From a virus (Duplodnaviria > Caudoviricetes), in IMG/VR virus record IMGVR_UViG_3300033565_000090, positions 1 to 62,347 of that record: 62,347 bases of DNA; one strand, written 5' to 3'. A model generated the notes under the pieces. It made no database searches. It worked only from the letters and a program-made list of their open reading frames with translations, and was not told the origin of the DNA. Made by a program: the position numbers and the translations under genes. This document shows, in pieces, positions 10,601-62,182 of this stretch. Position 1 is the stretch's first letter. The number at the start of each line of letters is the position of its first letter.

Positions 10601-10601
10601 T

Positions 10602-28196: not shown

Positions 28197-28212
28197 GAAA
28201 TACTCCGATCAC

Positions 28213-31200: not shown

Positions 31201-32535
31201 GATATTGAACCCTTGGGTGCGCTCATTCTCCCCAGCCGTCCACCGAACAAGGGCCTGCATTGATGCGTTCGTCGTGAAGGAAACGATGCTCGATGGGGCC
31301 GTTTCGTGAGGAATATCCACGTAGGTCGGATTCCCATATTCATCCAGCGGGCCCTCCCCCGTTTCAATCCAGGTCGCAGAAACTCGCACGTTCAGCGTCG
31401 TGCCAGAGGCCCAAAGCGGGACGGTCTCTGCAGAAAACCCCGTGATCGTGGGTGCGGCAAGCTCCGAGTCGAACAGAGTGGCCGTGAAAACCTGCTTGGC
31501 CGTGTGTTCACTCGGCGCCGCCTTCTTCTGGACGATCCCGACCTCATCCCCTTGGGCGAGGGCGTGAACCGTTTTTGTGGTGATGATGCGGCGCCGGAAA
31601 ACGGGAGAGAGCATGGACCCACACATTTCCAGGGGTGTTGCGGTCTTGTAGGCCGCTGCACCCAAGACCGATGTGCCGCTTTCCATCCCCTCGAACTGAG
31701 GGTTGCGAGTTATCCTCCGCACGCCACTGGTGTTGATTTGCCCGGTCAACGGGCTCGGGCCGCTCTCATCGATATGCCCGTTCACGTCACGAATGAACGT
31801 GTGGAAGTAGTAATAAACATCCTGGGCATCCAGGTTTGACGCGTACTCACCGTGTGGTGAAAGGCTTCCGTCATCGATGAACTGGGACATCTCAGGTGCC
31901 AGTTCTTCCAGGATCTGCTCCTTCCCGGATGTGCGGCCGTAAATCACCACCTTGACCACGGCCTCCAACTTGGGCGCGCTCCACTGAAGAATGGCGGTCC
32001 TGTTTTTCGGGATGGCGATGGTGATGGCGGGTCCAGGAGGGAGGAGCCCTTCTGCTGTCCGATAGCCGATACGGTAGGTGGCTGAAGTGCTGTCCTCCTG
32101 GAAAGCACTGCCTACGGGCCCCAGCGCAAGGGTCAAGCCGGGGGGCTCGGTCGATACCCCTTTGTCCACGGTCACAGGAGCCAAGGGGCGTGGAAGGCCG
32201 AGGGGTGCCGCCACGCCATCAATGATCTTCATCGGGATCTTGCCTTCGCCCGGCGCATAGCCCGACTCGGTGTAGTAGAGGCGTTCCTGACGGCCTACAA
32301 ATTCAGCCGCCCACACGCGATGTTCCGACGAGAACCACCATTTCCCACGGTACTCAAAGACATGCTTTGTTCCAGGTGGGACTTCCCGGCGAAAGACGGG
32401 AGCTCGATAAGAGGAGGCCGCGAACGCGGAAACGTCCGCATTATCCACCATCACGGCGAATCCATCCCCAAGCAGACTCGGGTCCACGATGGCACTGATT
32501 CCCTTGGTGAAGTCCACTCGGAAGGATCGAGACAT
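28213..32535 (-). CDS. Tail nozzle/head-stabilisation-like protein with low-GC C-terminal extension
   Basis: 1440 aa; FTKGISAIVDPSLL N-terminus, Fn3-like repeats, beta-propeller-like NRPDAFP...GCNAPNSV...YSSSRGL region. Confidence 0.7.
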   Translation of the reverse strand: MSRSFRVDFTKGISAIVDPSLLGDGFAVMVDNADVSAFAASSYRAPVFRREVPPGTKHVFEYRGKWWFSSEHRVWAAEFVGRQERLYYTESGYAPGEGKIPMKIIDGVAAPLGLPRPLAPVTVDKGVSTEPPGLTLALGPVGSAFQEDSTSATYRIGYRTAEGLLPPGPAITIAIPKNRTAILQWSAPKLEAVVKVVIYGRTSGKEQILEELAPEMSQFIDDGSLSPHGEYASNLDAQDVYYYFHTFIRDVNGHIDESGPSPLTGQINTSGVRRITRNPQFEGMESGTSVLGAAAYKTATPLEMCGSMLSPVFRRRIITTKTVHALAQGDEVGIVQKKAAPSEHTAKQVFTATLFDSELAAPTITGFSAETVPLWASGTTLNVRVSATWIETGEGPLDEYGNPTYVDIPHETAPSSIVSFTTNASMQALVRWTAGENERTQGFNIYVNGVLNCQVSADKLSAQIGPASGSTPIPTIVEGNSPTIVSVGDPGLIPVGTQVVAKVTAFRGSGWGACFGGAPAESLPSSSSTITTTHGLASLRWSPSSGDADGFHVYLDDKWIATLPATVQFLDFRPSVGDAARPTPVSNGSRNRVFHIADDPSMVWYPELAAQAPMGFGGIAKPVETRIVQTAHGHAKGDLLSFSGYEEIDGPHVVSRVANADEFYIEVLTEVDDATSSTRRYSATGEAFRFVKQWALYVQSGTTGGVPLQQGVYPIEQTEVIDGKPVWALSVTCPSAYYAQTPEGPVAVEFEPPPRGFRHPTLHNSCLWGIVDNAVVWGPVNRPDAFPKAFRRDFPFPPVALASYAGALVVLLPNGIGRFDGTDPANMSFSMTAARDGCNAPNSVQHTAAGLMYSSSRGLMAFQADINTSVPITAHRIDPSLFSSASSTSEDGWPGWWIPTRSAAAWAKCTRELPSADGQQRERMIDETLPINGVLEDIRSFYWRGRYYIYFTGSRFGRHGTIMVDTTRRSEAGYPVFHLGLRPSHAHVSSTDKAFILLNVDGGLNNDMDDPDNPIPNIDDGWLYTLKLKKADQPIGSTPDQVLEIQRRNLNDPKDGTFYRYCKVDSIASELSDLNCQLFVDDGKFYISAVVGPTGRAGNALHIKEWVLESIGPGEDKQGVFSVMREDSFSLEETLAPVGSNPWPDLGFITLASNYVFYSNQMFATDSTSVGATYSGLVTWSHIPPMGTAFMVESSTVKSNLLMMPYRSGWSGVTVTEVVRPRIGTLYITSDPSYINLTKVQSFHHEIQTSIGSVLTGVNAPISIQANSNNDWYSAGLSQYSGFVPDLNTTVSFGLPSFATNNFTMKVRGLLFNPSNIEDYREATTTRFVSGGSVQAAKSPDTLSAININNPLKNAALVGVWGRGGELGVYKRADQSSFDMCSDFFCIKPSDVMAETPYSIWSYIQDDGKIKHFEKLNTSAPELWIDDVKIKTYGESESIQ

Positions 32536-37867: not shown

Positions 37868-38152
37868 TTACGCCCATACTTCGCCCTGGTCAAGGGGCTC
37901 ACTTTTGGCATCTTCTCGGTCTGCTAACTCAAGAAAGAATCGTGTTCCACGGATAATCCCCTGACTTTCGAGAACAGAATTTCCTGTTGCTGTCTCTAAT
38001 TTGCAATGTTCCTTCTCTACTTGTCGAAACGACAATTCTTCAAGGAGCATCCTTAGGAAGGGATCAGACCGGAGTTTGCGCCCCAGCATTGTTTCCAGAT
38101 CCTCCTGCGGCAGATGGCTGACTTCCGTTTGGACCCTTGGACTGAATGGCAT
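37868..38152 (-). CDS. Small protein after portal (start uncertain)
   Basis: SQGIIRGTRFFLEL motif typical of small post-portal podovirus proteins. Confidence 0.5.
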   Translation of the reverse strand: MPFSPRVQTEVSHLPQEDLETMLGRKLRSDPFLRMLLEELSFRQVEKEHCKLETATGNSVLESQGIIRGTRFFLELADREDAKSEPLDQGEVWA

Positions 38153-40469
38153 TGGCGAGCTCCAGATTTGCCTTGTCGGTTTCGGTCAACTTTCCTGCGT
38201 TAAGTTCAGCATTTGCTCTCATCTCGGCATTGATGGCCGTCTCGATTTCGGGCGTCATCTCGCCAGCCTCATTCAGGACGGCCCGAAGGAGCGGGGGGGC
38301 AATCTGGGAGTTCTCCGGCAGGCTGTCCAAGCACTTCAGGAGGAAGTCCTTTTTCGCCATCTGGGGTTGCAGCGCGGGATTGCTGTTCGCCTGGGCCTGC
38401 ATCTGCATGGCCGCCTCGGCATCCGCCTTGTCGTTCTCGCGGACCTGGGCCTCGGTGTAGGTGAGGCCTTCGTCCTTGATGCCCATGGTCCGCAGGGACA
38501 CATCACCGACGCGGCTCCAGTTGATGCGCTTCGCGGAGGCAGGGTTCTGCTGCATCGCCTGGATCCACTGCATCACCCGCTGGGTCAGCACCTCGTCGGC
38601 CATGACCGAATCGACGCCCAGGGCCTCCACGTCGAAGTCGCCCTTGATCCGGTCGTCGTTGGAGAACTGCATCTCCCAGAAGTAAATGGCGCGCACCAGG
38701 GGCCGCGTGGCCTCCTGGTCGATGTTCTTCTGCACGCTGCGGGTCGAGACATCGGCCCACCCGCCCAGCATGGACATGCCCGCCGCAGTGCGGTTGTGGG
38801 TGGCGCCGGTCTGCAGGCCCTGAACGAGATCCGGCAGGGAGGTGCTTTCCTGGATGTTGGCCCGGGCGATCTCCGCGATCATCCGCATGTGCGCCACGTT
38901 GTTCGGCGGGAAATGGAACTGGACGGGCGGGATGGCGGAGCGCTCGGTGTCCTTGACCTCGAACATTTTCCCGGGGAACAAATCACCCTTCTCAGTCGAG
39001 TTCGTCATTCGGCTCTTGTCGTACCAACCGATGGGCAAGGCGCTGATCGCCATGTTGTCGATCATGGCCCGGTAGACCGTGTTCATCACGGCCACCCAGT
39101 CCTCCATCATCCAGGCCACGCCCTGGCCCCAGAGGCTCTTGGGGATGCGCTCGTAGGGCACGACGAAGAACGGAAGGCGCCGGGGCTTCAGGGATGCGCT
39201 CCAGGCCCGGAGCACATGGTTCCCGCACACCCAGATATTGGCGATCACCACCTCGTTTTCGTCGGGCTCCTTCTCTTCCCACTTCAGCGTCAGGTTGCTC
39301 CAGACCTTCACCTTGGCGATGTTCCCGCCCGCCCTGCGAAGGTCCGAGACCTTGATGTAGCCCCACCAGTCCAGCACCACGAACTTGTCGGGCATCCCCA
39401 TCCCCAGGGCCGTGCTCTCGCCGTTGGAGGCGAACATCCGGGATTCCCACGGCTCCGCGGTCCAGGCGCCCGTGCGGTCCGCGAGAACGGCCCAGATCTC
39501 ATCGGCGTTGAACCCGGGGTTGTCCACCAGGTCCGCCACCTCTCGATGCCCCATGACGTTGCGGACGATGGCCCACTCCAGCTTTTCCACCATCCAGGCG
39601 CCGGGGCTCGGGTAGAAGTCCCACGGGCTCACGTTCTCCACCTCGGGCCGGTAGAGCTTCACGTCCGGATCCACGTCCAGGAATCCCCAGGCCCCGCCCT
39701 TCCGGATCCACCGGCCGGGCCTCTTCTCCTTGGTGAGGGGGCCCTTGAAGATCATCGTGCCGTAGAGGCCCATGTCGAGGAGCCCCTGGTCGTACATCGC
39801 ATCGAATCGCATCTCCACGAAGTCGTCTGCGATCCTGGTCTTCATGGCCTCGGACCTGGACCGCGCCAGGTCTTTGACCTGCTGCATCATTTCGTCCACG
39901 TTCATTTCGGCCTGGATCTCCGCCGCCAGGCTCTTGTCCTGCATGGAGGCCAGGATGTCGGTGAGCGCCGTTCGCAGTTGGACCGGCGTGAAGTCGATGA
40001 CGTTGGGCTCCGGGGTGGGCTTGATGCCCCACTTGAACCCGATCTCCTTCAGGCGTGCGACCGCAGAAGCCACCTTGGTACGGGTGATCTTCATCGTCAC
40101 CTTGGAGCGCAGCTTCATCGCCATTTCGTTCACGGGGCGCGGCGCCGTTCCCCGGTAATTGTCGTGGCACTTCTCCCAGACCCGTTCCTGTTCCTGCTTC
40201 GCCATTCGCGCCGTGGCGAAGTGGCCGTTGACCATCGACACCAGGAAATTGGGCGCGGCCTCCTGATGCGTGCCGACGATGGCGCCATCCGGCGTGCCCA
40301 TCGCGTCCTCGGCGCCGCCCGGGGGTGTGCCTGAGAGACCTATCGGCTGGGTCGAAACGGGGCCCTGGGGCTGCACCGGGCCCGGGGGGATACCGGAAGC
40401 CATCCCGGGGGCCATGCCGCCACCGAGGGACTGAATTGGGCTTTGGGAGAGTGCAATCGGAGTTTCCAT
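38064..40469 (-). CDS. Portal protein
   Basis: 801 aa after TerL; WEKCHDNYRG, VSPWDFYPSP, RAMIDNMAIS, RTAAGMSML and IKGDFDVEALG motifs. Confidence 0.88.
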   Translation of the reverse strand: METPIALSQSPIQSLGGGMAPGMASGIPPGPVQPQGPVSTQPIGLSGTPPGGAEDAMGTPDGAIVGTHQEAAPNFLVSMVNGHFATARMAKQEQERVWEKCHDNYRGTAPRPVNEMAMKLRSKVTMKITRTKVASAVARLKEIGFKWGIKPTPEPNVIDFTPVQLRTALTDILASMQDKSLAAEIQAEMNVDEMMQQVKDLARSRSEAMKTRIADDFVEMRFDAMYDQGLLDMGLYGTMIFKGPLTKEKRPGRWIRKGGAWGFLDVDPDVKLYRPEVENVSPWDFYPSPGAWMVEKLEWAIVRNVMGHREVADLVDNPGFNADEIWAVLADRTGAWTAEPWESRMFASNGESTALGMGMPDKFVVLDWWGYIKVSDLRRAGGNIAKVKVWSNLTLKWEEKEPDENEVVIANIWVCGNHVLRAWSASLKPRRLPFFVVPYERIPKSLWGQGVAWMMEDWVAVMNTVYRAMIDNMAISALPIGWYDKSRMTNSTEKGDLFPGKMFEVKDTERSAIPPVQFHFPPNNVAHMRMIAEIARANIQESTSLPDLVQGLQTGATHNRTAAGMSMLGGWADVSTRSVQKNIDQEATRPLVRAIYFWEMQFSNDDRIKGDFDVEALGVDSVMADEVLTQRVMQWIQAMQQNPASAKRINWSRVGDVSLRTMGIKDEGLTYTEAQVRENDKADAEAAMQMQAQANSNPALQPQMAKKDFLLKCLDSLPENSQIAPPLLRAVLNEAGEMTPEIETAINAEMRANAELNAGKLTETDKANLELANAIQSKGPNGSQPSAAGGSGNNAGAQTPV

Positions 40470-40487: not shown

Positions 40488-41939
40488 TCAGTAGCCGGTC
40501 TCGGGGTCCAATGGGGTCCAGGTCTGGGGCGATCCCCGGAAGTACTGGCTCCCCTTCACGATCTGGGCATCTCCGATGTCCATGTAGCCGTAGCGGGTGG
40601 CGTCCTGCATGTGGTCGTCCTTCTTGCGAGGGACCGGCTGACCATCCGAATTGACCTTCTTCGGATCCCAGACGTAGTTCGACCACTCTTCAATCCAGTG
40701 GGTGCAGTTCGAGAAGACCTTGAACCGGCCCTCGGACATGGCGTTGTAGAGCTTGTTGATCCCGGCGTAGACCGCATTGTTCGCGTTCTTCACTTCCCAG
40801 CCGTCGCCAAACTCGTCGCGGTATTCCTTGATGATGGTTTCGCCATCCCGCTCGGCGCGGTTCGCGCTGGGGTCGATGCGCACGGGGTAGCATCCGAACT
40901 TCCGGCGCATCGCGCCCACATGGACCGCCGTGGGCTGTCGCTCCAGGTAGTGCTCGTCCACCAGGTAGGTCGTGCGTGAGGCCTTGTCGTAGCGCAGCAG
41001 GGCGCCCGCCGTGGGCGCCTGATAGGCCACGTCCAGGCCGATGATTCCGGGGTAGTGGTACTCCAGGTCGAAGGGCTTCACGATGATGTCCTTGGCCAGG
41101 AAGGGGTAGATCAACCCCGTCGCCATGGTCGGCAGGCCCGTGCGGCGCGCCTCGATCTCGTGCGGCAGGAGGCCCACGGACATCTGCCGCTTGTCCTCTT
41201 CGGACAAGTGGGGTACATCGTCCCAGCCGATGATGATCCGGCGCACCACCGAGGCATCCGGTTCATGCAGCAGGAACTTCGCCAGAGAGGTGAGGCCCTT
41301 CAACGGCGTGAAGGTCACGATCATGATCCCCTGCACCGTCATCGTGCGCAGCCGGCACTCGGTGAAAACGTCGTGATCGCACTCCTCGTCGATCCAGATC
41401 ACATGCTTGGCCGTGCCCTGCATCTTTTCCCGGCCCTGCTCGTTGGACTTCAGGGCCAGAATCGAAATCCCACCGGTGGGGACGTGGCGCACCCAGATCG
41501 TATCCACGGTGTCGGCTACACCTTGGCGCATGGAGTAGTCCACGATCAGATCCCGCGGGATCATCCCGGAGCCAAAGGCCGTCTTGATGTCGCCCAGCAG
41601 TTCCTTCTGGATGATTTCCCGGGAGCTCTCCGCCGTGACGGCCACACTCCATGCCTCGATGGGGGTGAAGAACCGCTTGCCAGTCCACCAGGCCGGATAC
41701 TGCCCCGTGAGGTGGCACACCATCTCGTAGGCCGCCGTGTAGGTCTTCCCGATGCGGTTCCCCCCGAAGATAGTCTTGATGGGAACCTTCCAGTTCAGCC
41801 ATTCGGCCTGCTTCGGGTAGGGCTGGTAGAGCTCGAACTTCCGCAGCTTGGACCGGCGCTCCTTCTCCGCTACCAGGGCCAGATACTCGTCCCTCGGGTC
41901 CAATGTGGACTGGTCCTGGAACTTCGCAGGCGCGGTCAA
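40488..41939 (-). CDS. terL: Terminase large subunit
   Basis: Walker A GGNRIGKT, Walker B IWIDEE, TFTP coupling motif, nuclease GLD and DDHMQDATRY. Confidence 0.93.
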   Translation of the reverse strand: MTAPAKFQDQSTLDPRDEYLALVAEKERRSKLRKFELYQPYPKQAEWLNWKVPIKTIFGGNRIGKTYTAAYEMVCHLTGQYPAWWTGKRFFTPIEAWSVAVTAESSREIIQKELLGDIKTAFGSGMIPRDLIVDYSMRQGVADTVDTIWVRHVPTGGISILALKSNEQGREKMQGTAKHVIWIDEECDHDVFTECRLRTMTVQGIMIVTFTPLKGLTSLAKFLLHEPDASVVRRIIIGWDDVPHLSEEDKRQMSVGLLPHEIEARRTGLPTMATGLIYPFLAKDIIVKPFDLEYHYPGIIGLDVAYQAPTAGALLRYDKASRTTYLVDEHYLERQPTAVHVGAMRRKFGCYPVRIDPSANRAERDGETIIKEYRDEFGDGWEVKNANNAVYAGINKLYNAMSEGRFKVFSNCTHWIEEWSNYVWDPKKVNSDGQPVPRKKDDHMQDATRYGYMDIGDAQIVKGSQYFRGSPQTWTPLDPETGY

Positions 41940-42878: not shown

Positions 42879-43373
42879 CTACTCGACAACAACCCAATCA
42901 TCCGCGAAGAGATCGGACTGCGAGGCAAGCCAGGGAACACGCGATCCCTGCGGGTAAGCGGGGTGCCCTTCCGGGTATTCGATGTAGAAGTAGGGCAGGC
43001 TCATCTTGGAGTGAGCGTCGGGGCGCTGGGCCTGCACCCACATCCCCTTCCCATTCCAACCCTTCCGCGCCACCCGGGCGCCGTGCTTCAGGCGATGCAA
43101 CGCAACCGAGAAGTCCATGGTCTCGATCTCTGGCGCCTGCCGCTTCCTTTCGGCCCGGATCTTTTCGCGGAAATCATTGAGGGCGGTAAGAATCTCGTGC
43201 TCGTAGTAGAACTCGTTCAGGCGGGAAACCACCGTCTGCGTAAGATTCGTATCACCGACTTGAGCCGACAGTTTGAGATTCGAATCGCCAAATGGGTTGC
43301 GGAATACCTCTAGTTCAATACCTTCGTTCTCCCGCAACATCTGAATGAATGGTTCTGGGATTGGGATGCCCAT
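42879..43373 (-). CDS. DUF2829/Tad2-family protein with N-terminal extension
   Basis: MDFSVALHRLKHGARVARKGWNGKGMW...PWLASQSDLFADDW signature; TGATG coupling to the HU gene. Confidence 0.85.
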   Translation of the reverse strand: MGIPIPEPFIQMLRENEGIELEVFRNPFGDSNLKLSAQVGDTNLTQTVVSRLNEFYYEHEILTALNDFREKIRAERKRQAPEIETMDFSVALHRLKHGARVARKGWNGKGMWVQAQRPDAHSKMSLPYFYIEYPEGHPAYPQGSRVPWLASQSDLFADDWVVVE

Positions 43374-43711
43374 CACTCCTCCAGGTGTTCCATCAGCGCC
43401 CGCTTCATCGTCTTGCCCGCCTGGAAGCGCACGACCCAACGCGCATCCAGCTTGTGGACCTTCCGCGAGATCGGCGAGAACGCCCGCCGCGAACTGCGCC
43501 GCACCGGCCACATCGTGCAGAACCCGCGCAGCTCCACCCGCTTCCCGGACAGAAGGGCCTCCGTCATCGTGTCCAGCAAGCTATCCAGGAGCTCCCGCAG
43601 TTCCACCTTTGTCCGGTTCGGGAACTTCGCCGCAAGCTCCTTCACCAGGCCATCCCGCCCGATCCGCTCCGCGGGGTTACGTTCCTTGAAACTTCTCAAG
43701 TCCTGAGGCAT
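43373..43711 (-). CDS. HU/IHF-family DNA-binding protein
   Basis: EALLSGKRVELRGFC...RRAFSPISRKV...VRFQAGKTMK. Confidence 0.85.
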   Translation of the reverse strand: MPQDLRSFKERNPAERIGRDGLVKELAAKFPNRTKVELRELLDSLLDTMTEALLSGKRVELRGFCTMWPVRRSSRRAFSPISRKVHKLDARWVVRFQAGKTMKRALMEHLEE

Positions 43712-47119: not shown

Positions 47120-47735
47120 GGAAGCTGCCAAGCCCGTGCGCTCTCTGGAGTGCTGCTGCTGCGGGGCTGGAACCCGTGGCCGTCAGTGGTGGAACCGAGA
47201 CACCGGCTATGGACTGTGCGAGGGCTGCGCGGAGCGCCTGCCCTCGCGTGGCGTCCCTGCCGAGGAGATGCGCGACCTCTACGGGATTCGGGGCGTGCAT
47301 TACGACCTGGAGCACCAGGCGCCCAAGCCTGAAAATGCGATGCGGGAAGTCCTGTCCCGGGTTCTCGCGGCTGAATGCCAGAGTTGTGGATCGGTAGGGG
47401 CGTTCCAGGTTGAGGACAAGATAACGGATCGCCGCACCTGGGATATCAGCGAGACCGGCGTGAGCAAGGTGCCAACGATCACCCAGGTGGACGCCGAGCC
47501 CTACAGAATTTCCTGTCAGTGCTGCGGCGAATCCCTGGAGGTGGCTGACGATGATCTTCAGGCCCTCGTGGATGGTGTGGAAGAAACCGATGTAAGTGCC
47601 CCCGCGCCGGATTCACTAGAGGCCCTGAAGGCTTTCGCGGGAACGGATAACTTCCGCGGCTGGCACGCGAAGTATCACACGGCGATCGAACTCGCCCGCG
47701 CCGCTATCGCCCGGGCAGAAGGGAGGCAGTCATGA
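47103..47735 (+). CDS. Cys-rich protein with two Zn-ribbon-like modules
   Basis: CCCCG..WWNRDTGYGLCEGC and CQSC..CQCC; GGAGG SD. Confidence 0.65.
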   Translation: MSGIDKEAAKPVRSLECCCCGAGTRGRQWWNRDTGYGLCEGCAERLPSRGVPAEEMRDLYGIRGVHYDLEHQAPKPENAMREVLSRVLAAECQSCGSVGAFQVEDKITDRRTWDISETGVSKVPTITQVDAEPYRISCQCCGESLEVADDDLQALVDGVEETDVSAPAPDSLEALKAFAGTDNFRGWHAKYHTAIELARAAIARAEGRQS

Positions 47736-47878
47736 ACCGCAGACGCACCATTCACCTGAGCCGAGTGGGCCTGCATGATCGCCGGGTGCGCTGGGCAGAT
47801 CGGCGCCAGCACACTGGAATGTTCCGCTGGCTCTGGATCCCAGTGCCTGATCTGTGGTTCCGGTTCTGGGCCAGGTGA
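47732..47878 (+). CDS. 48-aa Arg/Trp-rich peptide (not in the ORF track)
   Basis: MNRRRTIHLSRVGLHDRRVRWADRRQHTGMFRWLWIPVPDLWFRFWAR; GGGAGG SD and ATGA overlap. Confidence 0.5.
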   Translation: MNRRRTIHLSRVGLHDRRVRWADRRQHTGMFRWLWIPVPDLWFRFWAR

Positions 47879-48240
47879 CGCCAATGAACCGCCTGACCTA
47901 CATCCTCCTGGCGCTTCTCTTCGCGGCCATCTACGGGAAGCACCCCCATGCTTAGCTGCCAGTGTCTGGACTGCCTGTATGCCCGAGCCCGCGCCGAGAA
48001 GGTGTGGGCCTGGGCGGCAGTGTGGGAGTTATCGCTGGGCTGAAGATCGAACTCATCCCCATGCCGCCCCGGAAGGGGCTTTTGGGGTGTAAGCGACAAA
48101 CCTATTCCAGGAGGTGCCTCATGCGCTTCAGTGCCTAAACAGCGTGCCCAGTTATCCCGATTGTGAGGGCGGCCACGAGACGCGAATGGGCCGCCCTCAC
48201 GCTTTGAAACCGGCTTCACATCCCAGAGGGAATTTCAGCG

Positions 48241-48564
48241 ATGCCTCACAAGCACAGAAAACCACCCATCACACTGCCACCCTATGACCAGGATTTAGCG
48301 GACCAGGTTTACAAATCCCGAACCGTCATCATCAACGGCGAATCGATCCCCACACACTACCTGGTTGCCGCGAGGCTTGAGGAGCTGGAGCGAACCATCG
48401 AGGCCTCGCCCTATCTGGATGCCGTGATTCTGGCGCGCCAAGTCCACCGCTACCGAGCTGTCCTGGTACGGCAGATTGGTGACCACCGGAAGTGCCCAGA
48501 GTGCGGACACACCTTTGTCCCGATGGACTCAACCTCTCAGGAGGCCATCGACGCCATCAAGTAG
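48241..48564 (+). CDS. Hypothetical protein with C-terminal CPECGH Zn ribbon
   Basis: 107-aa ORF followed by a terminator. Confidence 0.6.
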   Translation: MPHKHRKPPITLPPYDQDLADQVYKSRTVIINGESIPTHYLVAARLEELERTIEASPYLDAVILARQVHRYRAVLVRQIGDHRKCPECGHTFVPMDSTSQEAIDAIK

Positions 48565-48586
48565 AGCCAGAGGCACCACACCGCCC

Positions 48587-48613
48587 AGCCCCGGCCCTCC
48601 GGGGCTTTTCTTT
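48587..48613 (+). terminator. Rho-independent terminator
   Basis: AGCCCCGG-CCCT-CCGGGGCT then TTTCTTT; separates convergent operons. Confidence 0.8.
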
Positions 48614-48815
48614 ACCCGCGCACCCGCCGCGCCTGGCTACTCAGCCAGTAGACCAGGTAGCCACCCCCACCTAGCGCCAGGGCCCAGAGTGGCAGGGCCA
48701 GCAGCATCCGGTCGCCGACGACTGCCGGCACACCCAGCACCACCAGGGCCAGGATGCCAACCATCACGGGCAGGATGAGGAGATCGAGCATCCATCCGAG
48801 CAGCTTTTTACCCAT
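48612..48815 (-). CDS. Small two-TM membrane protein
   Basis: MGKKLLGWML start with GGAGGG SD; two hydrophobic helices. Confidence 0.6.
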   Translation of the reverse strand: MGKKLLGWMLDLLILPVMVGILALVVLGVPAVVGDRMLLALPLWALALGGGGYLVYWLSSQARRVRG

Positions 48816-48884
48816 GGCGCCCTCCACTCCGCCAAAGATACACCCCTCTGCGATTGGATGCACATCAATCGGCATGGTTGCGCC

Positions 48885-49604
48885 CTACGCATAAACCTCG
48901 CGCCGCTGGGACTGCCTCATGGGCCGCGTCTGCGCGGCAACCGCTGGGAGCGTCACACGCCATCCGCCACGGGTAGCAACCACGGCATCCCCCAACCGTG
49001 TCAGGGCGGTCAGGGTCCGCAGATCTGGCGCCAGCTCCGCTAGGTCCGGCGCCAGCAGGTCCAGGATGATCGTGCGGCCGTCCGAGAAATCGAAGCTCAC
49101 TCCCACCCGGTCGTGGTCCGTGGTCCGGGCCCGCAGGTCTGCCAGCAGCGCCGAGAGTGACCCGACCAGGTGCGGGGCTGATGGCCCCAGAACCATGACG
49201 TTCGGCGCCCGATCCAGGAGCGTCACGTCGCCGCCGTCCTCCTCCACCTGGGCAATGGCGTCCGCCAGGTGAATGGGATGCTGGCTCATGGTGCAGGCCT
49301 CCATGCTCTCCACCAGCGCCGCCGCCCTGCCCTGGCTGTCCAGCAGCTCTAGCAGCGCCGCCTCGGTCGCCTGCAGGTCGTTGATCTGTTTCAGAGCATG
49401 GCGGATGATCCGGCCATTGACCGTTGAGGTGTCGCGCAGCGCAGCCCTCACACTTTGCCCCCGGGATTCCTCGGCCTCCCGGAGGCGCCGTTCTGCGTCC
49501 AGGCGCATGGTGTATTCCAGGCGCACCCGCCGCGCCCCCATGGCTGCACCCGCGACGAGGGCGATGGCAATTCCGATCAATTCGAGCGTGGCGCGGAGAT
49601 GCAC
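48885..49604 (-). CDS. Membrane-anchored degenerate histidine-kinase-like protein
   Basis: N-terminal TM, coiled coil, H-box-like IIRHALKQ (His69), HATPase-like LADAIAQV...LSALLADL...GGWRVTLP without N-box Asn or G-boxes. Confidence 0.55.
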   Translation of the reverse strand: MHLRATLELIGIAIALVAGAAMGARRVRLEYTMRLDAERRLREAEESRGQSVRAALRDTSTVNGRIIRHALKQINDLQATEAALLELLDSQGRAAALVESMEACTMSQHPIHLADAIAQVEEDGGDVTLLDRAPNVMVLGPSAPHLVGSLSALLADLRARTTDHDRVGVSFDFSDGRTIILDLLAPDLAELAPDLRTLTALTRLGDAVVATRGGWRVTLPAVAAQTRPMRQSQRREVYA

Positions 49605-50173
49605 GATGAAACTCCGATTCCAAGAATGACTACAGCGGAAGCATAGTTAAAAACATCCCATAAAACAATCAACGAATTGGCATTATTCCTAAGCATGGTT
49701 GAGAAGTAGAACATCGCAACAGCGCCAGCAGCAGCCTTGATAAAAATGCCAGCAGGCAACACAAACTCAATATCCATCAATCCCCTACCAGCATGAACGG
49801 CACGGGATAGATAGAACAGACTCCAGGCCGCCAGCCACGCCACCTCAAAGGTCGAGAACCAGCGATCCGGAGCAGAGATACCACCGTTGAGATACATAAC
49901 AATGGGCCAAATCAGGATCGGGATTAAGGCCATGAGCCTCTTGCCGAATCCGGCACATTGAATAAAGGCAAGAGGAAGCGCAATCGACTCAAAAAGACAA
50001 GCGATGTTGATCACGTAGAGGTTGTGGTGCCCCATTTCGGCGATGATATTCGCGGAAACATCCAGAAACAGCCCCCCACCCAGCGCCGCAAGCAGCGCCC
50101 TGGGAGCTCTCCGCGCTAGAACGACGGCTGCCCCCTGGGCTGCAAGACTGACGGCGACGCTGGCGGGAAGCAT
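49577..50173 (-). CDS. Multipass (about 6-7 TM) membrane protein, putative receptor
   Basis: Hydrophobic throughout; HNLYVINIACLFE and EFVLPAGIFI motifs; lower GC than flanks. Confidence 0.7.
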   Translation of the reverse strand: MLPASVAVSLAAQGAAVVLARRAPRALLAALGGGLFLDVSANIIAEMGHHNLYVINIACLFESIALPLAFIQCAGFGKRLMALIPILIWPIVMYLNGGISAPDRWFSTFEVAWLAAWSLFYLSRAVHAGRGLMDIEFVLPAGIFIKAAAGAVAMFYFSTMLRNNANSLIVLWDVFNYASAVVILGIGVSSCISAPRSN

Positions 50174-50185
50174 GTATCACCTCAA

Positions 50186-50608
50186 TCAAGGGAGAGTGGG
50201 GACATCAACGCAGTAGGGCGGGCAGGGCCTGGAGCGATCAAGGAACATCAAGGGCTCGCCACCCTCCGTTTCGCCTGCGATTACGAGCGCCGGGGATCCG
50301 TCCTCAGCCAGCGCGTAGTAGACCCGCACGGTCTTGACGGCGCGATTGGCGACCAGGGCCCGCAGCGCCGCCGCGTTAAATGCGTGGGACGTGGGAGAGG
50401 GGTTCACCGTGGCCTCAGCCTGGAACCGCTGGCCCGCCTGGTTGGTGACGGCCATCTGAGCCGTCTGGAACCGGGCGATCATGGCCTTGGCCTGACCAGG
50501 TTCAATCAGGTGGACCGCCGCTGCCTCATCGGCGGCAAAGGCGGGCGGCATGGGAGCCGCATAGGCGGCGAAGCCCACCACCAGGGAGAGAAGAAGGGCC
50601 TTGATCAT
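50186..50608 (-). CDS. Secreted protein with C-terminal PCPPYC motif
   Basis: Signal peptide MIKALLLSLVVGFAAYA; VRVYYA..DG..ALVIAG; DRSRPCPPYC; GGAGG SD. Confidence 0.8.
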   Translation of the reverse strand: MIKALLLSLVVGFAAYAAPMPPAFAADEAAAVHLIEPGQAKAMIARFQTAQMAVTNQAGQRFQAEATVNPSPTSHAFNAAALRALVANRAVKTVRVYYALAEDGSPALVIAGETEGGEPLMFLDRSRPCPPYCVDVPTLP

Positions 50609-50668
50609 ATGGTACCTCCATAGAGAAGCCGGTCATCCGGCCCTCCCAGGGTTAGGCAAAACTTGGAA

Positions 50669-51409
50669 CTAGGCCAGCAAAATCGAAAGGACTACCTGGA
50701 ACTTGGAACGACTCGCAGGGTCCATCTCATCCAGCAGGCCCGACACCCGCAACAGCACCTGGGTTTTCTCCACCGCGTTCCACGGGTTCTTACGCAGGGC
50801 TCCGGCTGCATCCACCAGGGCCAGGGCCAGGGCTAGCGTCTCTGGGTTGGTGTGGTTTGCCCCATTCGCCGCAGGCTTCACCGACGATGACGATGACTGC
50901 ACGAGCAGTCTGGGGCTCAGGTTCAAAACCATCGCCAGCGAGTCGAGATCGTCATCCGTAGGCTCGACCAGGCCCGCGAGGATCCGCAAGCAGTAAGCCA
51001 TATCCCAGTGACTCAGGCGCTTGGCCATGGCATGGACAAGATCTCTGGGAGCCCAATTGAACCGCCCCAGCGTGACGCGAACACGGCCGGCAGGCCCGGG
51101 CGGGATGGGCCCATCAGCGGGCCCAATGCCATACACCAGGTAGTCCTCAGTGGTCTGCAGCACCGCGACCAGGTTCTCGAGGTTCGAGGCCCTGGGAATG
51201 GTCCCAGCTTCCCATTCGCAAATAGAATTCTTGGATCGACCAACCGCTAAACCAAGCTCCTCTTGCCGGGATATTCCAAGCTCAAGTCGCCTAGTGCGGA
51301 GCCTTTCCCCGAATTGGATGGACTTTTCAGCCGCCAAAAATTCCCTCTTGAAAGTTGGAATTTGGGGATGTAAGTTTGATTCACGTTCATGCGGGTGCTG
51401 GGCGTTCAT
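50669..51409 (-). CDS. XRE-family regulator (second repressor-like, possible second HTH)
   Basis: FGERLRTRRLELGISRQEELGLAVGRSKNSICEWEAG..P. Confidence 0.8.
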   Translation of the reverse strand: MNAQHPHERESNLHPQIPTFKREFLAAEKSIQFGERLRTRRLELGISRQEELGLAVGRSKNSICEWEAGTIPRASNLENLVAVLQTTEDYLVYGIGPADGPIPPGPAGRVRVTLGRFNWAPRDLVHAMAKRLSHWDMAYCLRILAGLVEPTDDDLDSLAMVLNLSPRLLVQSSSSSVKPAANGANHTNPETLALALALVDAAGALRKNPWNAVEKTQVLLRVSGLLDEMDPASRSKFQVVLSILLA

Positions 51410-51551
51410 AGCTCCAACCTGCTGACGTTTGCCCTGCTACTGCTGGGCGAATTTCTCATACCCCAAAAAGCAACATTCATTCTATCGCACCAAGTCAACT
51501 CGTCCCAAAAATCCAAGCTACCCACCTGAAAGTTGGAAATGGTCAGCATGT

Positions 51552-52022
51552 TCATCCCCGCACAGCGGCCCGAATCTCTTTCACGAGCCGATCATCCAGC
51601 ACCTCACGCCCCCGGGAAACCAGGGAGTAGGCCAACCCAAGGGCCCGGCCCAGCGCATCGGGCGACAGTCGGGGCTCGCCTTCCAGCGCCCTCACGATGC
51701 TGGCCACCAGCACCCAGTCGGTCTCTGGGGCTCCGCCTTCCTCTTGCCGAGGAGGCAGGCGCCTGGCGATGTCGGCCCGGCGTTGCCGGTCGCCCAGGGG
51801 AGCGACGTAGGGCCCCTCTTCCCCCTGCCCATCCCGCAGCCACTCCACCCGCTTGTTCAGAAGATAGGCCATGTCGTCAAAATCCGTGGGCTTCTGCGGC
51901 ATGGTCAAACCCTGCTCCCACTTGGAGATGGTGAACCGATGAACCCGCATCTTTTCGGACAACTCCACCTGTGTCCATCCCTTCTCGGTGCGTGCCTTGG
52001 CGAGTCGATCCCCGAATTTCAT
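51552..52022 (-). CDS. CI-like XRE repressor without a peptidase domain
   Basis: FGDRLAKARTEKGWTQVELSEKMRVHRFTISKWEQG; divergent from the Cro-like gene. Confidence 0.8.
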   Translation of the reverse strand: MKFGDRLAKARTEKGWTQVELSEKMRVHRFTISKWEQGLTMPQKPTDFDDMAYLLNKRVEWLRDGQGEEGPYVAPLGDRQRRADIARRLPPRQEEGGAPETDWVLVASIVRALEGEPRLSPDALGRALGLAYSLVSRGREVLDDRLVKEIRAAVRG

Positions 52023-52041
52023 ATGATTCCCCTTGCGTGAA

Positions 52042-52057
52042 GTATCCAAATGGATAT
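52042..52057. promoter_or_regulatory. Operator GTATCCAAATGGATAT in the cI/cro gap
   Basis: Matches the 16-bp consensus; partial site at 52108-52123. Confidence 0.7.
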
Positions 52058-52161
52058 GCTCTCTTGTATGTGTTGGTGTCTGGTTTGGATCATCTGACTA
52101 CCAAACTTTAACCATTCGCATACCAAAGTCAACCCTGAACCATGAAATAAGTTGGAGAAAC

Positions 52162-52392
52162 ATGAACCTCCCCGAGCCCAACTCCTTCGCAAACCGTGTG
52201 AAACGGGCGCGCCTCCTGAAGGGGCTCACCCAGAACGAGGTAGCCAAGAAGCTCAAGCTGCGCGTGTCAACGGTGGCTAACTGGGAAACCCAGATCGCCG
52301 AGCCCTTCCCCCGCAACCTCGCCGCCCTGGCGAAGCTGCTGGATGTATCCATCGAGTGGTTGGCCAGCGGGGACACCCCCGCCAATCCCTAG
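52162..52392 (+). CDS. Cro-like XRE regulator
   Basis: 76 aa; FANRVKRARLLKGLTQNEVAKKLKLRVSTVANWET; GGAG SD. Confidence 0.85.
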   Translation: MNLPEPNSFANRVKRARLLKGLTQNEVAKKLKLRVSTVANWETQIAEPFPRNLAALAKLLDVSIEWLASGDTPANP

Positions 52393-52469
52393 TTCAAGGC
52401 CGATACTCGGCGCGGCCCACCCGAGTATCCATTCGCCTATCTCTCCCTTTGGGCACCAGGAGCACCGAG

Positions 52470-52616
52470 ATGCCAAACCTTCCCCACCAGTTCCAACCCT
52501 GCGGGACCATCCGCTTCCGGGCAGAGGGCCCGGAGTTCAAGGCCTTCACCGCCGAGGGTCGCACCTACTACTGGTCCCCCATCGCCTACCGCCTCATCCC
52601 CGTGGTGGCCCGATGA
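52470..52616 (+). CDS. Small hypothetical protein
   Basis: AGGAG SD; ATGA coupling to the next gene. Confidence 0.5.
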   Translation: MPNLPHQFQPCGTIRFRAEGPEFKAFTAEGRTYYWSPIAYRLIPVVAR

Positions 52617-52861
52617 AGCCCGCCGTGATCCCCTTCGTCAGCGTCCGCTGCGCACCCTCTAAGGTTGCCAAGGTGACCGCCACATGGCAGAGGTTCGGCC
52701 CCTTCCCGGAGGTCGTGTTCGAGGTTCAGGCCTACCAGGGCGCCAACGCGCACCTGGTCCCCCCCAACATCCGCCACAACGTCTCCTCCCTGCCCAGCAG
52801 CACCCAGGAAAGCCTGGATGCCGCCTTCAACGAAATCCTCCTCGCGGGGCAAGTCGGATGA
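52613..52861 (+). CDS. Hypothetical protein
   Basis: Start MKPAVI; ATGA overlaps. Confidence 0.55.
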   Translation: MKPAVIPFVSVRCAPSKVAKVTATWQRFGPFPEVVFEVQAYQGANAHLVPPNIRHNVSSLPSSTQESLDAAFNEILLAGQVG

Positions 52862-53139
52862 GCGATACCCCTACCGCCGCCGCCCGGGCCGCCCGGATTG
52901 AGGGCGCCCTTCAGGCCTACCAAACCGCCCTTGGAGAAACCTTCGACACCCCCACCGAGTCTGTGGTGAACCTGCTCACGGATCTCCACCACTTCTGCCA
53001 CGTCAACAATGTGGACCTGGACGACTGCATCTATGTTGCCCAGGAGTGCGCCGCCCAGGAGAGCGAAGGCCCCTCGCCTCTGCCCATCAACGTCCAGGGG
53101 AAGCTGAACCTGCTTCTCCAACCGGGCCAGCAGGCATGA
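52858..53139 (+). CDS. Hypothetical helical protein
   Basis: VVNLLTDLHHFC motif; ATGA overlaps. Confidence 0.6.
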   Translation: MSDTPTAAARAARIEGALQAYQTALGETFDTPTESVVNLLTDLHHFCHVNNVDLDDCIYVAQECAAQESEGPSPLPINVQGKLNLLLQPGQQA

Positions 53140-53420
53140 CCTCCTACTATCTCGTCTCCTTCAAAGGCCTCGGCGTCACCACGACCACCGAGCGCTGCGG
53201 GAGCCTGATTTCTGCCGTGTTCTTCGCCGCCCGCAAGGCTGGGCGCCTGCGCCTTGCCTACCACCGCATCACCGTAGAGTTCCTTGAAGACGGCCAGCCC
53301 CCCGAACTGGTCGAAGCCTGGGAGCGTCCCAGGGGCACCATCACCTGGCGCCCCGTCAGCATCGACCGTCCCATCGGCTACGCCCGCTACAACCTGCCCC
53401 TGATTCCCGCCAACACCTAG
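53136..53420 (+). CDS. Hypothetical protein
   Basis: Start MTSYYL; ATGA overlap. Confidence 0.55.
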   Translation: MTSYYLVSFKGLGVTTTTERCGSLISAVFFAARKAGRLRLAYHRITVEFLEDGQPPELVEAWERPRGTITWRPVSIDRPIGYARYNLPLIPANT

Positions 53421-53466
53421 CCCCAGGGGCCGCCCTTCCCCACCTCTTCCTCTCTTTGGAGCTGGA

Positions 53467-53805
53467 ATGCCATCGGCCTATACCAAGATTGCCCCCAAGT
53501 CCATCCAGGCCGGGCTCATCGCGCGCGGAGATCGACTCTACGCGCGCGGGATCCTCCTGCGAGTGCTGGCCCGCGACATGAAACTCGACGGGCGCATCCG
53601 CCTGGTATTGGAGCACCCGGACGGCGACCGCATCTATCGCACCTTCCCGGCCCACAAGTATCTGGAGATCGTCCCCGGAGACACCACCCTCGCCAAGGCT
53701 CGGCACCTCCTGGAAATGGCGGTCCAGTTCCTGGGGTTCTCCAATCCCCTGCGCAAGGCCATCGATCGGTATCTCGAGGATACCGATGCGGAGCCCGCGC
53801 CATGA
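53467..53805 (+). CDS. Hypothetical protein
   Basis: GGAG SD; co-oriented. Confidence 0.6.
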   Translation: MPSAYTKIAPKSIQAGLIARGDRLYARGILLRVLARDMKLDGRIRLVLEHPDGDRIYRTFPAHKYLEIVPGDTTLAKARHLLEMAVQFLGFSNPLRKAIDRYLEDTDAEPAP

Positions 53806-53886
53806 AGCACGTCCTCACCGTGCTCTACGCCCTGGCCTGCCTCCTCGTCCTCCTAATCTGCCTGCCCATGCCCCACGGAGGCTCCC

Positions 53887-54147
53887 GTGACTGACCTTCG
53901 TATCGAACGCTGTCCCTACTGCAAGTCCTTCCATGTGGTGCTGGAACTGCGCCCCTGCAATTCCTACGTGAAGGATGGCGCCACCACCTACTTCATCAAC
54001 GTGACCCAAATGCGCTGCGAGTCCTGCCTTCGGGTCTGGGACCGGAAGGCCATGCGCGGCGTGGGGATGACCTTTCCGCCCCCGGAGCCCCGGGGGTTCT
54101 GGGATCGCCTCTACAACCTGATCCACCCAGCAAAGGACGGAGAATGA
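53887..54147 (+). CDS. Zn-ribbon protein
   Basis: CPYC...CESC; GGAGG SD. Confidence 0.6.
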   Translation: MTDLRIERCPYCKSFHVVLELRPCNSYVKDGATTYFINVTQMRCESCLRVWDRKAMRGVGMTFPPPEPRGFWDRLYNLIHPAKDGE

Positions 54148-60722: not shown

Positions 60723-62030
60723 TCATCCCAGCCACTCCGCGATCTGGGTGCCAATGGCCTCGGCGGTGTCCTTCAATGGGTTGGTGCCTACCCGCGTGTA
60801 GATCTGGGTCACCGATCCCGCGGCGTGCCCCAGCAGGGCCGACATGAAGAGCTCCGGGAAACCCATGTCGGCGCCCACGCTCGAGAAGGTGCGCCGGAGA
60901 TCGTGGAGGGTGACATCGCTGATGCTGACGGGAGATTCCTTGCCCCGGGCCTTCTTCCGCTCCCGGCGCGCCAGTTCCGTCACCGTGGCCCGGATCCGCT
61001 CCCAGGCATCGATGTCCACCAGGTGCTCCCCATGCACCGCCCCCTGGAGCACGTAGGGATTCGGGTGCTTCGCCTTCGCCTTGTCGTTCCGTGGCAGGGC
61101 CTTGAGTACCGCCAAGGCCGCTTGGCCGAGGTAGACTACCCGGGCCTTGCCACTCTTCTTCCCGGTCTTGTGGGCCTCCGGGGGGATGGTCACGATCCCG
61201 GCCTTCAGATCCACCCAGGCCCACTCCAGCCCCATGACCTCCCCGGGCCGGAAGCCCGCCAGCAGCAGCAGGCGAATCCCGGCCAGCGCGAAGGGGGATT
61301 CGGACACGATGTCCCCGGGCTCCCACCCCACCTGGAGCGTTCCCTTGGCGGCCTCCACCAGGCGCAGCACCTTCCCCAGGGCCCGGATCTCCCGCTCCAC
61401 CAAGCGCCGGTCGCGCTTCTTCTCCGGCGCCCGGTCCTGCCCCTTGCACGGGTTGGTCCCAGGATCCCGCATCTGCCAAAGCTCCGCCTTGGCGAACATC
61501 TTGGAGAGCACGGCGCGGGTGCGGTTCGCCTGCACCGGGGTAGCCTTCCGGACCTCCCCCAGGAGGGAGGCCACCTCGGACGTGCCCACCTCCCGCACCT
61601 GGCGCTTGCCCAGCGCCGGGAGAATGATCGCGTTCAGGATCCTCGTCGCGTCCCGCAGCTGGTAGGCCCCGTTGTTCACCTTGACGTGCTCCTCGAGGTA
61701 GCGGGTCGCCAGATCCGAGATGGTCTTGTCGGCCTCCTTCGCCTCGCGCAATTGCTGGGCCGGGTCCACCCCATGGGCCAGGTCGCCCTTGTGCTTCCGG
61801 GCGATGTTCCGGGCCTGTTCCAGGGTGATGTCCCCAAAGCGACCGATCTTGATCCATCCCTTCTTCCCCAAGCGCGTCCGGTACTGGAGGGCGAAGGTCT
61901 TCACCCCCGCGGGTGTCACCCTCACGCAGAGCCCAACGACCCCTACCCCCTTCACCACCTCATCGGATACCTTGTAAGGTGCCTCCGCGGGGGCCATCTC
62001 CATCAGGAGTTTCTTTGTCAGGTGCGGCAT
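60723..62030 (-). CDS. int: Tyrosine integrase with N-terminal arm-binding domain
   Basis: GLCVRV..AGVKTF arm domain, AGFRPGE, HDLRRT, LLGH and TQIY catalytic residues; GGAGG SD before MPHLTKK. Confidence 0.95.
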   Translation of the reverse strand: MPHLTKKLLMEMAPAEAPYKVSDEVVKGVGVVGLCVRVTPAGVKTFALQYRTRLGKKGWIKIGRFGDITLEQARNIARKHKGDLAHGVDPAQQLREAKEADKTISDLATRYLEEHVKVNNGAYQLRDATRILNAIILPALGKRQVREVGTSEVASLLGEVRKATPVQANRTRAVLSKMFAKAELWQMRDPGTNPCKGQDRAPEKKRDRRLVEREIRALGKVLRLVEAAKGTLQVGWEPGDIVSESPFALAGIRLLLLAGFRPGEVMGLEWAWVDLKAGIVTIPPEAHKTGKKSGKARVVYLGQAALAVLKALPRNDKAKAKHPNPYVLQGAVHGEHLVDIDAWERIRATVTELARRERKKARGKESPVSISDVTLHDLRRTFSSVGADMGFPELFMSALLGHAAGSVTQIYTRVGTNPLKDTAEAIGTQIAEWLG

Positions 62031-62034
62031 CCCA

Positions 62035-62064
62035 GTGCCTCCGTCGTGCCTCCACAGTGCCTCC
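62035..62064. repeat. Three GTGCCTCC direct repeats, probable integrase arm sites
   Basis: Copies at 62035, 62046 and 62057 (11-bp period) between the int start and the att core. Confidence 0.7.
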
Positions 62065-62182
62065 ACTGTGCGAATGATGTAGCCATACACCACAATACTA
62101 GACAGCACGAAAAGCCGCGCCACTCAATCAATCGAATTTGCAAGTATAGCCAGATGGATACTTACGCAACCAAGGAAAAGGT

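Follow-up and report, generated by a model that had tools for sequence, protein, structure and literature searches.

A prophage module behind repressor-type genes that appears to hold the diverged input half of a bacterial sensory cassette

We describe four genes, here called P4, P3, P2 and P1, that lie directly behind the repressor-type genes of an integrated phage and that, from their sequences, appear to be accessory cargo (a 'moron') of this phage. The phage belongs to the Caudoviricetes, and its complete provirus record in IMG/VR (IMGVR_UViG_3300033565_000090), 62,347 bases, is the window that we analysed. P4 encodes an exported protein with a P-C-P-P-x-C motif and P3 a multipass membrane protein, and by sequence comparison both are copies, though diverged, of the genes that open a bacterial cassette, in which a PCPPxC protein, a seven-transmembrane (7TM) protein of about 210 amino acids (aa), a single-transmembrane histidine kinase and usually a LuxR-type regulator follow one another. 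We place the ancestry of P4 and P3 in signal transduction because the homologous bacterial pair sits directly upstream of the single-transmembrane kinase and usually of the regulator. P2 occupies the position of the bacterial kinase, but kinase homology is not detectable in its sequence. We give an even chance to the reading that the module is a captured and remodelled sensor input, acting in sensing or in modulating host signalling. The module is probably expressed in the lysogen, where it would act on host signalling or on the envelope state. An earlier note on this DNA had proposed a ligand, receptor and transducer set; the signal-transduction ancestry of P4 and P3 stands, the transducer was lost with the undetectable kinase, and the role of P4 as a ligand is weakened by its folded domain and its mostly leaderless family.

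The exported protein and the cassette of its bacterial relatives

The N-terminal hydrophobic leader of P4 ends in an A-x-A site, and the PCPPYC motif lies seven residues before the C-terminus. The earlier note had described a signal-peptide protein ending in DRSRPCPPYC, which is right for the leader and wrong for the very end of the protein. A word-based search with P4 returned two close relatives only. An exhaustive phmmer search against 1.84 billion representatives, for which P4 and not P2 was the query, returned 41 proteins at E <= 1e-3, the best of them outside the phage clade at E 3.4e-10. Seventeen of these are single-domain proteins (102-156 aa), 23 are tandem two-domain proteins (about 184-267 aa) and one is a repeat protein of 1258 aa (P0027), which by inspection we read as a false positive.

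The family pattern opens with a His at the domain start and continues through an R-x-Y-Y strand, a D-G turn and a hydrophobic strand to the P-C-P-P-x-C motif and a short tail. In an alignment of 19 sequences (A1), C129, P130 and P131 are invariant and H33, Y97, G104, P128 and C133 are at least 90% conserved; in an alignment of 28 sequences (A8) this level is reached by A40, R95, Y97, G104, V109, P128, P131 and C133, and not by H33. By these sequence patterns P4 belongs to a real, unnamed family, the members of which are labelled hypothetical or left nameless in the source records. The literature searched on the PCPPxC motif turned up only unrelated animal peptides.

An AlphaFold2 (AF2) model of P4, computed from 28 sequences, shows a helix-helix-three-strand domain with a mean predicted local distance difference test score (pLDDT) of 73.8, and of 78-92 in the core. 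P4 is thereby predicted to be a folded domain of about 100 aa, within a mature domain of 114 aa, and not a peptide precursor. Comparison of the model with the PDB gave no convincing structural relative (best Foldseek E 0.16; best Z 3.1 in a wide VIA-align search), and neither did comparison with the viral models of BFVD (best E 0.041). A PDB profile search with the family returned one thioredoxin at E 0.49 and no solved sequence relative. One may speculate that the invariant Cys pair of the PCPPxC proteins is a redox or metal site.

The leader of P4 is not typical of its family. In the Gemmatimonadota set, 21 of 22 PCPPxC open reading frames (ORFs) have no hydrophobic leader when ATG starts only are considered, and in the first 17 loci at least seven PCPPxC proteins are leaderless and at least three carry a leader or a lipobox. 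The family is therefore presumably mostly intracellular and cytoplasmic, and P4 would belong to an exported minority. Since most members are leaderless, a diffusible protein signal is unlikely as the general role of the family, and an accessory sensing subunit fits better. This bears on an option raised in the earlier note, a protein-based communication between phages or between lysogens, in which cells would detect, through P3 and P2, the P4 that others release, and the lysis-lysogeny decision would be set in this way. Such a role would suit the signal peptide of P4 and the place of the module beside the genetic switch, and it would have a precedent in phiCDHM1, a phage of Clostridioides difficile that carries a partial quorum-sensing cassette without a regulator (PMC3901668). 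However, a family that is mostly leaderless and includes some lipoproteins is in general no released signal. With a diderm host, moreover, a domain that is folded and about 100 aa long would have to pass the outer membrane twice, and no link from P2 to the XRE proteins is evident. With the leaderless family and the folded domain of P4 weakening it, we consider communication very improbable.

The gene order of the bacterial cassette was established in 37 loci, 17 in set A and 20 in set B, from Bacteroidota, Ignavibacteriota, Calditrichota, Zixibacteria and Gemmatimonadota. In all 36 loci with room for it, the PCPPxC gene is immediately followed by a 7TM gene, and a kinase comes next after the 7TM gene in 29 of the 34 loci with room. 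Set A comprises loci of metagenome-assembled genomes (MAGs) that were found by a species-genome scan with the family alignment A3 and searched in six frames with hidden Markov models (HMMs); their records are labelled Ignavibacteriales, Calditrichota, Cytophagia, Bacteroidetes, Chitinophagaceae, Zixibacteria and Gemmatimonadales. In this set the PCPPxC gene is directly followed by a multipass gene of about 210-220 aa in 16 of 16 loci with room, the 17th locus ending at the match, and a same-strand histidine kinase is next in 12 of 15 (not in L006, L010 and L014). Seven loci have a strong LuxR-type regulator, and three further kinases are hybrids with a receiver domain. Set B comprises the best 20 of 43 matches, from 35 of 301 sampled Gemmatimonadota genomes; among these 20, the PCPPxC-7TM pair is adjacent throughout, 17 of the 19 with room have the kinase as the next gene, and 16 have a regulator after that. 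The kinase and regulator HMMs were built from set A and favour the set A type. The family profile also matches 40 of 301 sampled Bacteroidota genomes, and a PCPPxC gene occurs in about one in eight of the sampled genomes of Bacteroidota and Gemmatimonadota.

The cassette kinases are of the HisKA_3/HATPase_c type, in set A with one N-terminal transmembrane (TM) segment and no periplasmic domain, and the regulators are of the LuxR/GerE type. Neither Pfam nor NCBIfam has a model for the PCPPxC or the 7TM protein, and we found no description of the cassette in the literature searched. That PCPPxC proteins occur in Bacteroidota beside a multipass protein, a single-TM kinase and a regulator had been stated in the earlier note, and this is confirmed by the 37 loci and the motif alignments.

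Some bacterial loci depart from the common layout. Tandem extra copies of the first two cassette genes precede one kinase-regulator pair in L037, L042 and L053, with two PCPPxC and three 7TM matches in L042 and two PCPPxC genes each in the other two. The cassettes of three Gemmatimonadales MAGs (L015, L016 and L017) look frameshifted, with the PCPPxC motif lost and the 7TM frame fused to the kinase, which could reflect pseudogenes or errors of assembly. The pair stands without an adjacent kinase in two related Bacteroidetes MAG loci (L006:5554-7282 and L014:2664-4416), with a divergent XRE/HTH_3 gene upstream and a small TM protein downstream, a layout loosely like that of the phage module. 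XRE regulator 2 of the phage has no similarity to the XRE protein of L006, nor P1 to its small TM protein. PHROGs searches on the flanks of L006, L014 and L007 gave no clear prophage context, a Sak4-like gene and a transposase being found in L007 only. Two Gemmatimonadota loci (L039:1255-5654 and L043) have the pair, but neither a kinase nor a regulator occurs within about 5 kb; L039 has a short 7TM gene (150 aa) and, downstream, an ATPase-like ORF of 730 aa.

The multipass protein and the protein in the kinase position

About seven hydrophobic segments can be recognised in P3, and basic residues mark every other loop, a positive-inside pattern that suggests an N-out/C-in topology. The multipass protein of six to seven TM segments that the earlier note had placed 12 nucleotides (nt) after P4 is thus confirmed. 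With an HMM of seven 7TM-family sequences, P3 was the best ORF of the window at E 0.059, which is weak alone. Profile comparison with hhalign gave a probability of 71%, E 3.6e-5 and a score of 37.4 over 150 collinear columns. When the P3 alignment was reversed or rotated, which preserves its composition and hydrophobic segments, none of 33 controls reached the real score (maximum 14.5 against 37.4), and forward rotations kept partial alignments with scores of 19-38, as expected for true full-length similarity. P3 also shares traits of the 7TM family, namely a near-invariant Asn, an acidic residue in the third helix, a Phe, a Trp and a C-terminal Cys, the aligned residues being N51, E62, F137, W172 and Cys191 with its accompanying basic residues. 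We accept P3 as a diverged member of the 7TM family found downstream of PCPPxC genes on the strength of the hhalign E-value, the controls, the signature residues and a length in the same class (198 aa, against 209-222 aa in the family). Pfam gave only UPF0182 for P3, at E 0.013 and below the cut-off of that family, and a PDB profile search with the 7TM family gave no match and no solved sequence relative. A predicted complex of P3 with mature P4 scored 0.01, a value obtained without control runs that says nothing either way.

P3 differs in composition from its neighbours. Its GC content is 0.53 and its GC content at third codon positions (GC3) 0.58, and the 3' half has a GC3 of 0.40-0.50, against 0.77-0.90 in the flanking genes. 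This points to a separate or more recent origin of P3, from a donor of lower GC content than that of P4 and P2.

P2 starts with a GTG codon inside the end of P3, and the resulting overlap of 28 nt mirrors bacterial junctions, the 7TM and kinase genes overlapping by 19 nt in L002 and L004. With the cassette kinases P2 shares this type of junction, the N-terminal architecture and a similar length. A single-sequence AF2 model predicts residues 2-105 to be helical, with a block-mean pLDDT of 86-97 over residues 1-80 that falls to 52 by residue 100, and gives an unusable C-terminal half (pLDDT below 50 for residues 96-239), the alignment material amounting to three sequences. In the earlier note P2 had been an overlapping protein with a TM segment, a coiled coil and a histidine-kinase-like part; the overlap, the TM segment and the long helix stand, and the kinase likeness failed all homology tests.

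These tests bear on the possibility that P2 is a real but extremely diverged histidine kinase, fed by P4 and P3 and acting on a host response regulator by phosphorylation. The kinase position, the overlapping start, the single N-terminal TM segment and the long helix are what such a kinase would have, and so is the size of P2, close to that of minimal cassette kinases such as one of 271 aa in L018. A forced end-to-end hhalign alignment is also collinear, and an Atlas feature search with P2 ranked a 253-aa HATPase_c cluster tenth (score 0.88, 185 shared features) and a HisKin-conflict cluster 28th, both of which are leads only and fall below the Atlas reliability mark. However, no Pfam or NCBIfam kinase domain was found in P2 at E <= 0.1, hhalign against the cassette kinases (profiles of 4 and 20 sequences) gave probabilities of 1.2%, 0.5% and 0.2%, and shuffled P2 profiles equalled or beat the real score in 52 of 100 and in 38 of 60 trials. 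Bit scores were negative in hmmsearch --max runs, and a PDB profile search with P2 returned only neuroglobin at E 0.17. The stretches presumed to correspond to the ATP-binding boxes are, by eye, without the Asn and Gly residues. The kinase-like look of P2 comes from a hydrophobic and Gly pattern visible by eye, which we do not count as evidence. A diverged kinase thus seems to us improbable, and P2 could be called a transducer by positional analogy only.

P2 was also not found with the bacterial cassettes. A P2 profile matched three of 301 Gemmatimonadota genomes at E 0.003-0.008, as many as chance alone would give, none of 301 Bacteroidota genomes and none of five genomes with cassette loci, so that the 602 sampled genomes of the two phyla hold no match above chance. 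In the 20 Gemmatimonadota cassette loci no ORF matched the profile at E <= 1. The phage itself seems to supply neither partner: no window ORF of at least 40 aa matches REC/LuxR or kinase HMMs at E <= 1e-3, and Pfam found no Response_reg domain among the 41 window ORFs scanned, in agreement with the earlier note, in which no response regulator had been seen.

The module in its prophage

We regard the window as a prophage because it is a provirus record and encodes an integrase, a terminase, an SU10-type portal and an amidase, together with DnaB, RusA and YqaJ; the replication block contains DnaB, RusA, YqaJ and DUF927 proteins. The genetic switch lies at about 52.0-52.2 kb, where a plus-strand Cro-like XRE gene, the true start of which is probably internal, near Met44, diverges from two minus-strand XRE genes (Table 1). 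The two minus-strand XRE regulators of the earlier note are thus both confirmed. XRE regulator 1, the first gene in the direction of the minus-strand lysogeny transcript, is the CI-like candidate. XRE regulator 2 consists of an N-terminal helix-turn-helix and a C-terminal part of about 150 aa that has no family assignment.

Table 1. Positions in the window of the module genes and of other features of the prophage
Feature	Position	Strand	Description and evidence
P4, PCPPxC-domain protein	50186..50608	-	140 aa; leader about residues 1-25; 41 phmmer matches at E <= 1e-3
P3, 7TM membrane protein	49577..50173	-	198 aa; hmmsearch E 0.059; hhalign E 3.6e-5; shared signature residues
P2	48885..49604	-	239 aa; single N-terminal TM segment, helix of about 100 residues, C-terminal part of about 130 aa without family
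P1, 2-TM protein, last gene of the set	48612..48875	-	87 aa; two TM segments; no family match
XRE regulator 2	50669..51409	-	246 aa; HTH_31 E 3.7e-10; promoter-like site 51508-51479
XRE regulator 1	51552..52049	-	165 aa; HTH_31 E 6.6e-10; phrog_2328 transcriptional repressor E 1.2e-13; promoter-like site 52132-52105
Cro-like XRE regulator, divergent from the repressor genes	52033..52392	+	HTH_3 E 6.9e-14; Phage_CI_repr E 1.9e-4; phrog_4 E 1.9e-17
GC-rich hairpin between P1 and the convergent plus-strand gene 48241-48564	48587..48606	.	scored as plus-strand terminator
Integrase	60723-62123		
Large terminase, T4-type	40488-41939		
Portal, SU10-type	38064-40469		
Amidase	10094-10693		

P4 follows XRE regulator 2 on the same strand after a gap of 60 nt, in which no terminator-like hairpin was found, and P3, P2 and P1 come after it. 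Expression of the module in the lysogen is thus probable from position and strand only, and the hairpin beyond P1 may also end the minus-strand transcript. In sequencing runs labelled RNA-Seq, from wastewater, coverage of the stretch was patchy and small, and two of the three were flagged as probably DNA.

P4 stops 12 nt before the start of P3, a spacing that also has its like in the bacterial loci, and the 28-nt overlap then joins P3 to P2. P4 is predicted to be periplasmic and the other three products to be membrane proteins. The reading frames of P4, P2 and P1 are supported by their GC3 of 0.77-0.82. P1 probably starts at Met21 (48815), because the ribosome-binding site (RBS) is better placed there; the two TM segments that the earlier note had seen at the end of the module are confirmed. 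Searches of Pfam, NCBIfam, PHROGs and PADLOC gave no family match for any of the four proteins, the PADLOC library of 2023 returning no family at E <= 0.1.

P4, P3 and P2 have two close relatives each, at 84-92% and at 69-90% identity (for P2 these two are the only ones known), on contigs of 60,954 nt, 18,121 nt and 4,331 nt. The 60,954-nt record, from a DNA run, covers positions 48574-54000 of the window with P1, P2, P3, P4 and the XRE genes in the same order, and differs from the P2-P4 stretch by 223 letters of 1963 (about 11%) and 22 gaps. The module is kept together in this small phage clade, which is weaker than an independent co-occurrence. Its edges show mosaic exchange in the same relative, where 222 letters are inserted between P2 and P1 (window 48884-48886) and two stretches to the left of the module (window 47311-48574) are replaced by other sequence. 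Scans of viral contigs with P3, P4, the P2 alignment A6 and the family alignment A3 showed no relatives, and nor did scans of metagenome contigs with A6 and A11.

These relatives speak to the idea that the module is decaying, functionless cargo from a host chromosome. The missing kinase and regulator and the odd composition of P3 would be accounted for in this way, and some bacterial copies (L015-L017) are themselves frameshifted. Yet the four ORFs are intact, with RBS-like sequences and coupled junctions, and the module is kept in relatives that have about 11% DNA differences and proteins 84-92% identical. We give decay only a slim chance.

Elsewhere in the window, a single ORF of 4106 aa (11061-23381, minus strand) stands among the virion genes; its sole Pfam match, above the cut-off at E 3.1e-7, is to part of a GGDEF-like domain (residues 524-596), and the product may be a giant virion protein of an ejected or polymerase-like kind. 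A 210-aa protein encoded shortly before the terminase genes, on their upstream side (42879-43511, minus strand), has a C-terminal Tad2-like (Thoeris anti-defence 2) domain at E 3e-21. A low-GC island at 27780-32535 on the minus strand (GC 0.50 at 28-30 kb, about 0.62 elsewhere in the window) holds a 1440-aa ORF with a GC3 of 0.63 and no Pfam family, adjoins a collagen-repeat protein (27112-27783) and is probably an exchanged host-recognition module.

Possible roles and comparison with known systems

According to the reading of a captured sensor input, which we find the most economical, a temperate phage would have acquired the input half of the cassette and kept it behind its repressors. P2, a membrane protein that is not a kinase, would have taken the place of the kinase at the same overlapping junction, with P1 following. 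In the lysogen, P4 would be exported to the periplasm and partner the inner-membrane P3 as the input half of a sensor, and the single TM segment of P2 would contact P3 within the membrane, as the kinase presumably does in bacteria. Since such a P2 could not phosphorylate, the output would pass either through a host pair or through the cytoplasmic part of P2: the module may interfere with, or hook onto, a host kinase-regulator pair of the same kind, or the cytoplasmic part of P2 may give a non-phosphoryl output.

A bolder version may be offered, which we think unlikely. According to this speculation the cassette would be a four-component sensory system, at home in the FCB group and Gemmatimonadota, from which the phage took the input half; P2, shaped like a kinase but kinase-dead, would have been joined to this half and would dock on the 7TM-kinase complex of the host. 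The prophage would in this way silence the pathway, or would time its induction by a cue from the envelope, from redox state or from metals, sensed by the Cys pair of P4.

Several observations weigh against a captured sensor input. Most members of the PCPPxC family are leaderless, unlike the exported P4, and what is concluded from the bacterial system may not transfer to the phage. The drop in GC3 suggests separate acquisitions of P3 and P4, or a replacement of P3. P1 and P2 are without relatives outside the phage clade and may be unrelated cargo rather than parts of one machine. The position of the genes, behind a prophage repressor, is a classical site of exclusion and defence.

The last point leads to the main alternative, superinfection exclusion or another envelope-level defence, in which the module would block DNA entry or abort infection by other phages and the signalling ancestry of P4 and P3 would have been repurposed. 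Prophage exclusion genes classically sit behind the repressor, as rexAB of lambda and sieA and sieB of P22 do, and here too the genes share the strand of the repressors and come immediately after two XRE genes. Each of the four products belongs to the membrane or the periplasm, P2 and P1 are orphan proteins, which is common among exclusion proteins, and the Tad2-like domain indicates that this phage takes part in phage-host conflict. However, no PADLOC model matches any of the four proteins, the bacterial pair is tied to kinases and regulators and not to mobile or defence contexts, and the viral-contig scans show no relative of the pair. We regard exclusion as possible, if rather doubtful.

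The lambda genes rexA and rexB, prophage genes co-transcribed with the repressor, are a parallel in position. As in the module, they lie directly downstream of the repressor on the same strand, with a multipass membrane protein in the set. Unlike them, the module has no sequence relation to rex, no PADLOC match, and an ancestry that lies in a sensory cassette. In the arbitrium system (AimP-AimR-AimX), a short processed peptide is bound by a cytoplasmic TPR receptor. The module resembles it in encoding an exported phage product near the lysis-lysogeny switch, and differs in using a folded domain and membrane proteins instead of a short peptide and a cytoplasmic receptor.

The bacterial cassette may be compared with the LiaFSR and VraTSR three-component systems, which are reported to comprise an intramembrane-sensing HisKA_3 kinase and an accessory membrane protein. 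Both the cassette and these systems have a single-TM HisKA_3/HATPase_c kinase without a periplasmic domain, a LuxR/GerE regulator and an upstream gene for a membrane protein. However, the accessory proteins of the cassette are unrelated, neither Pfam nor NCBIfam giving a match to the 7TM or PCPPxC protein, there are two accessory genes in place of one, and the phage copy has neither kinase nor regulator. The tightly conserved order of PCPPxC protein, 7TM protein, single-TM kinase and regulator defines a cassette of which the literature searched has no description, and it looks like a new way to feed signals into kinases that have no sensing domain of their own.

The closest published parallel is phiCDHM1, which carries agrD, agrB and agrC without the regulator, in a region of lower GC content than the rest of the phage, and for which the authors propose an output through a host regulator (PMC3901668). 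Each of the two is a temperate phage with a signalling cassette of host origin that lacks a response regulator; the cassette of phiCDHM1 joins an input protein or pre-peptide to a kinase and a multipass membrane protein. In both the composition is shifted, over the whole agr cassette in phiCDHM1 and in the multipass gene P3 only here (PMC3901668). The two are nevertheless not homologous: P3 has no AgrB match in Pfam, the mature domain of P4 is folded and has 114 aa, against a pre-peptide of about 45 aa in phiCDHM1 (PMC3901668), and no kinase is recognisable in the third gene here. The host probably comes from the FCB group or Gemmatimonadota, and not from Firmicutes as in phiCDHM1. The module is thus a second, independent case of a temperate phage with the front part of a host signalling pathway and no regulator, which suggests that tapping or jamming of host sensing may be a recurrent prophage strategy outside Firmicutes.

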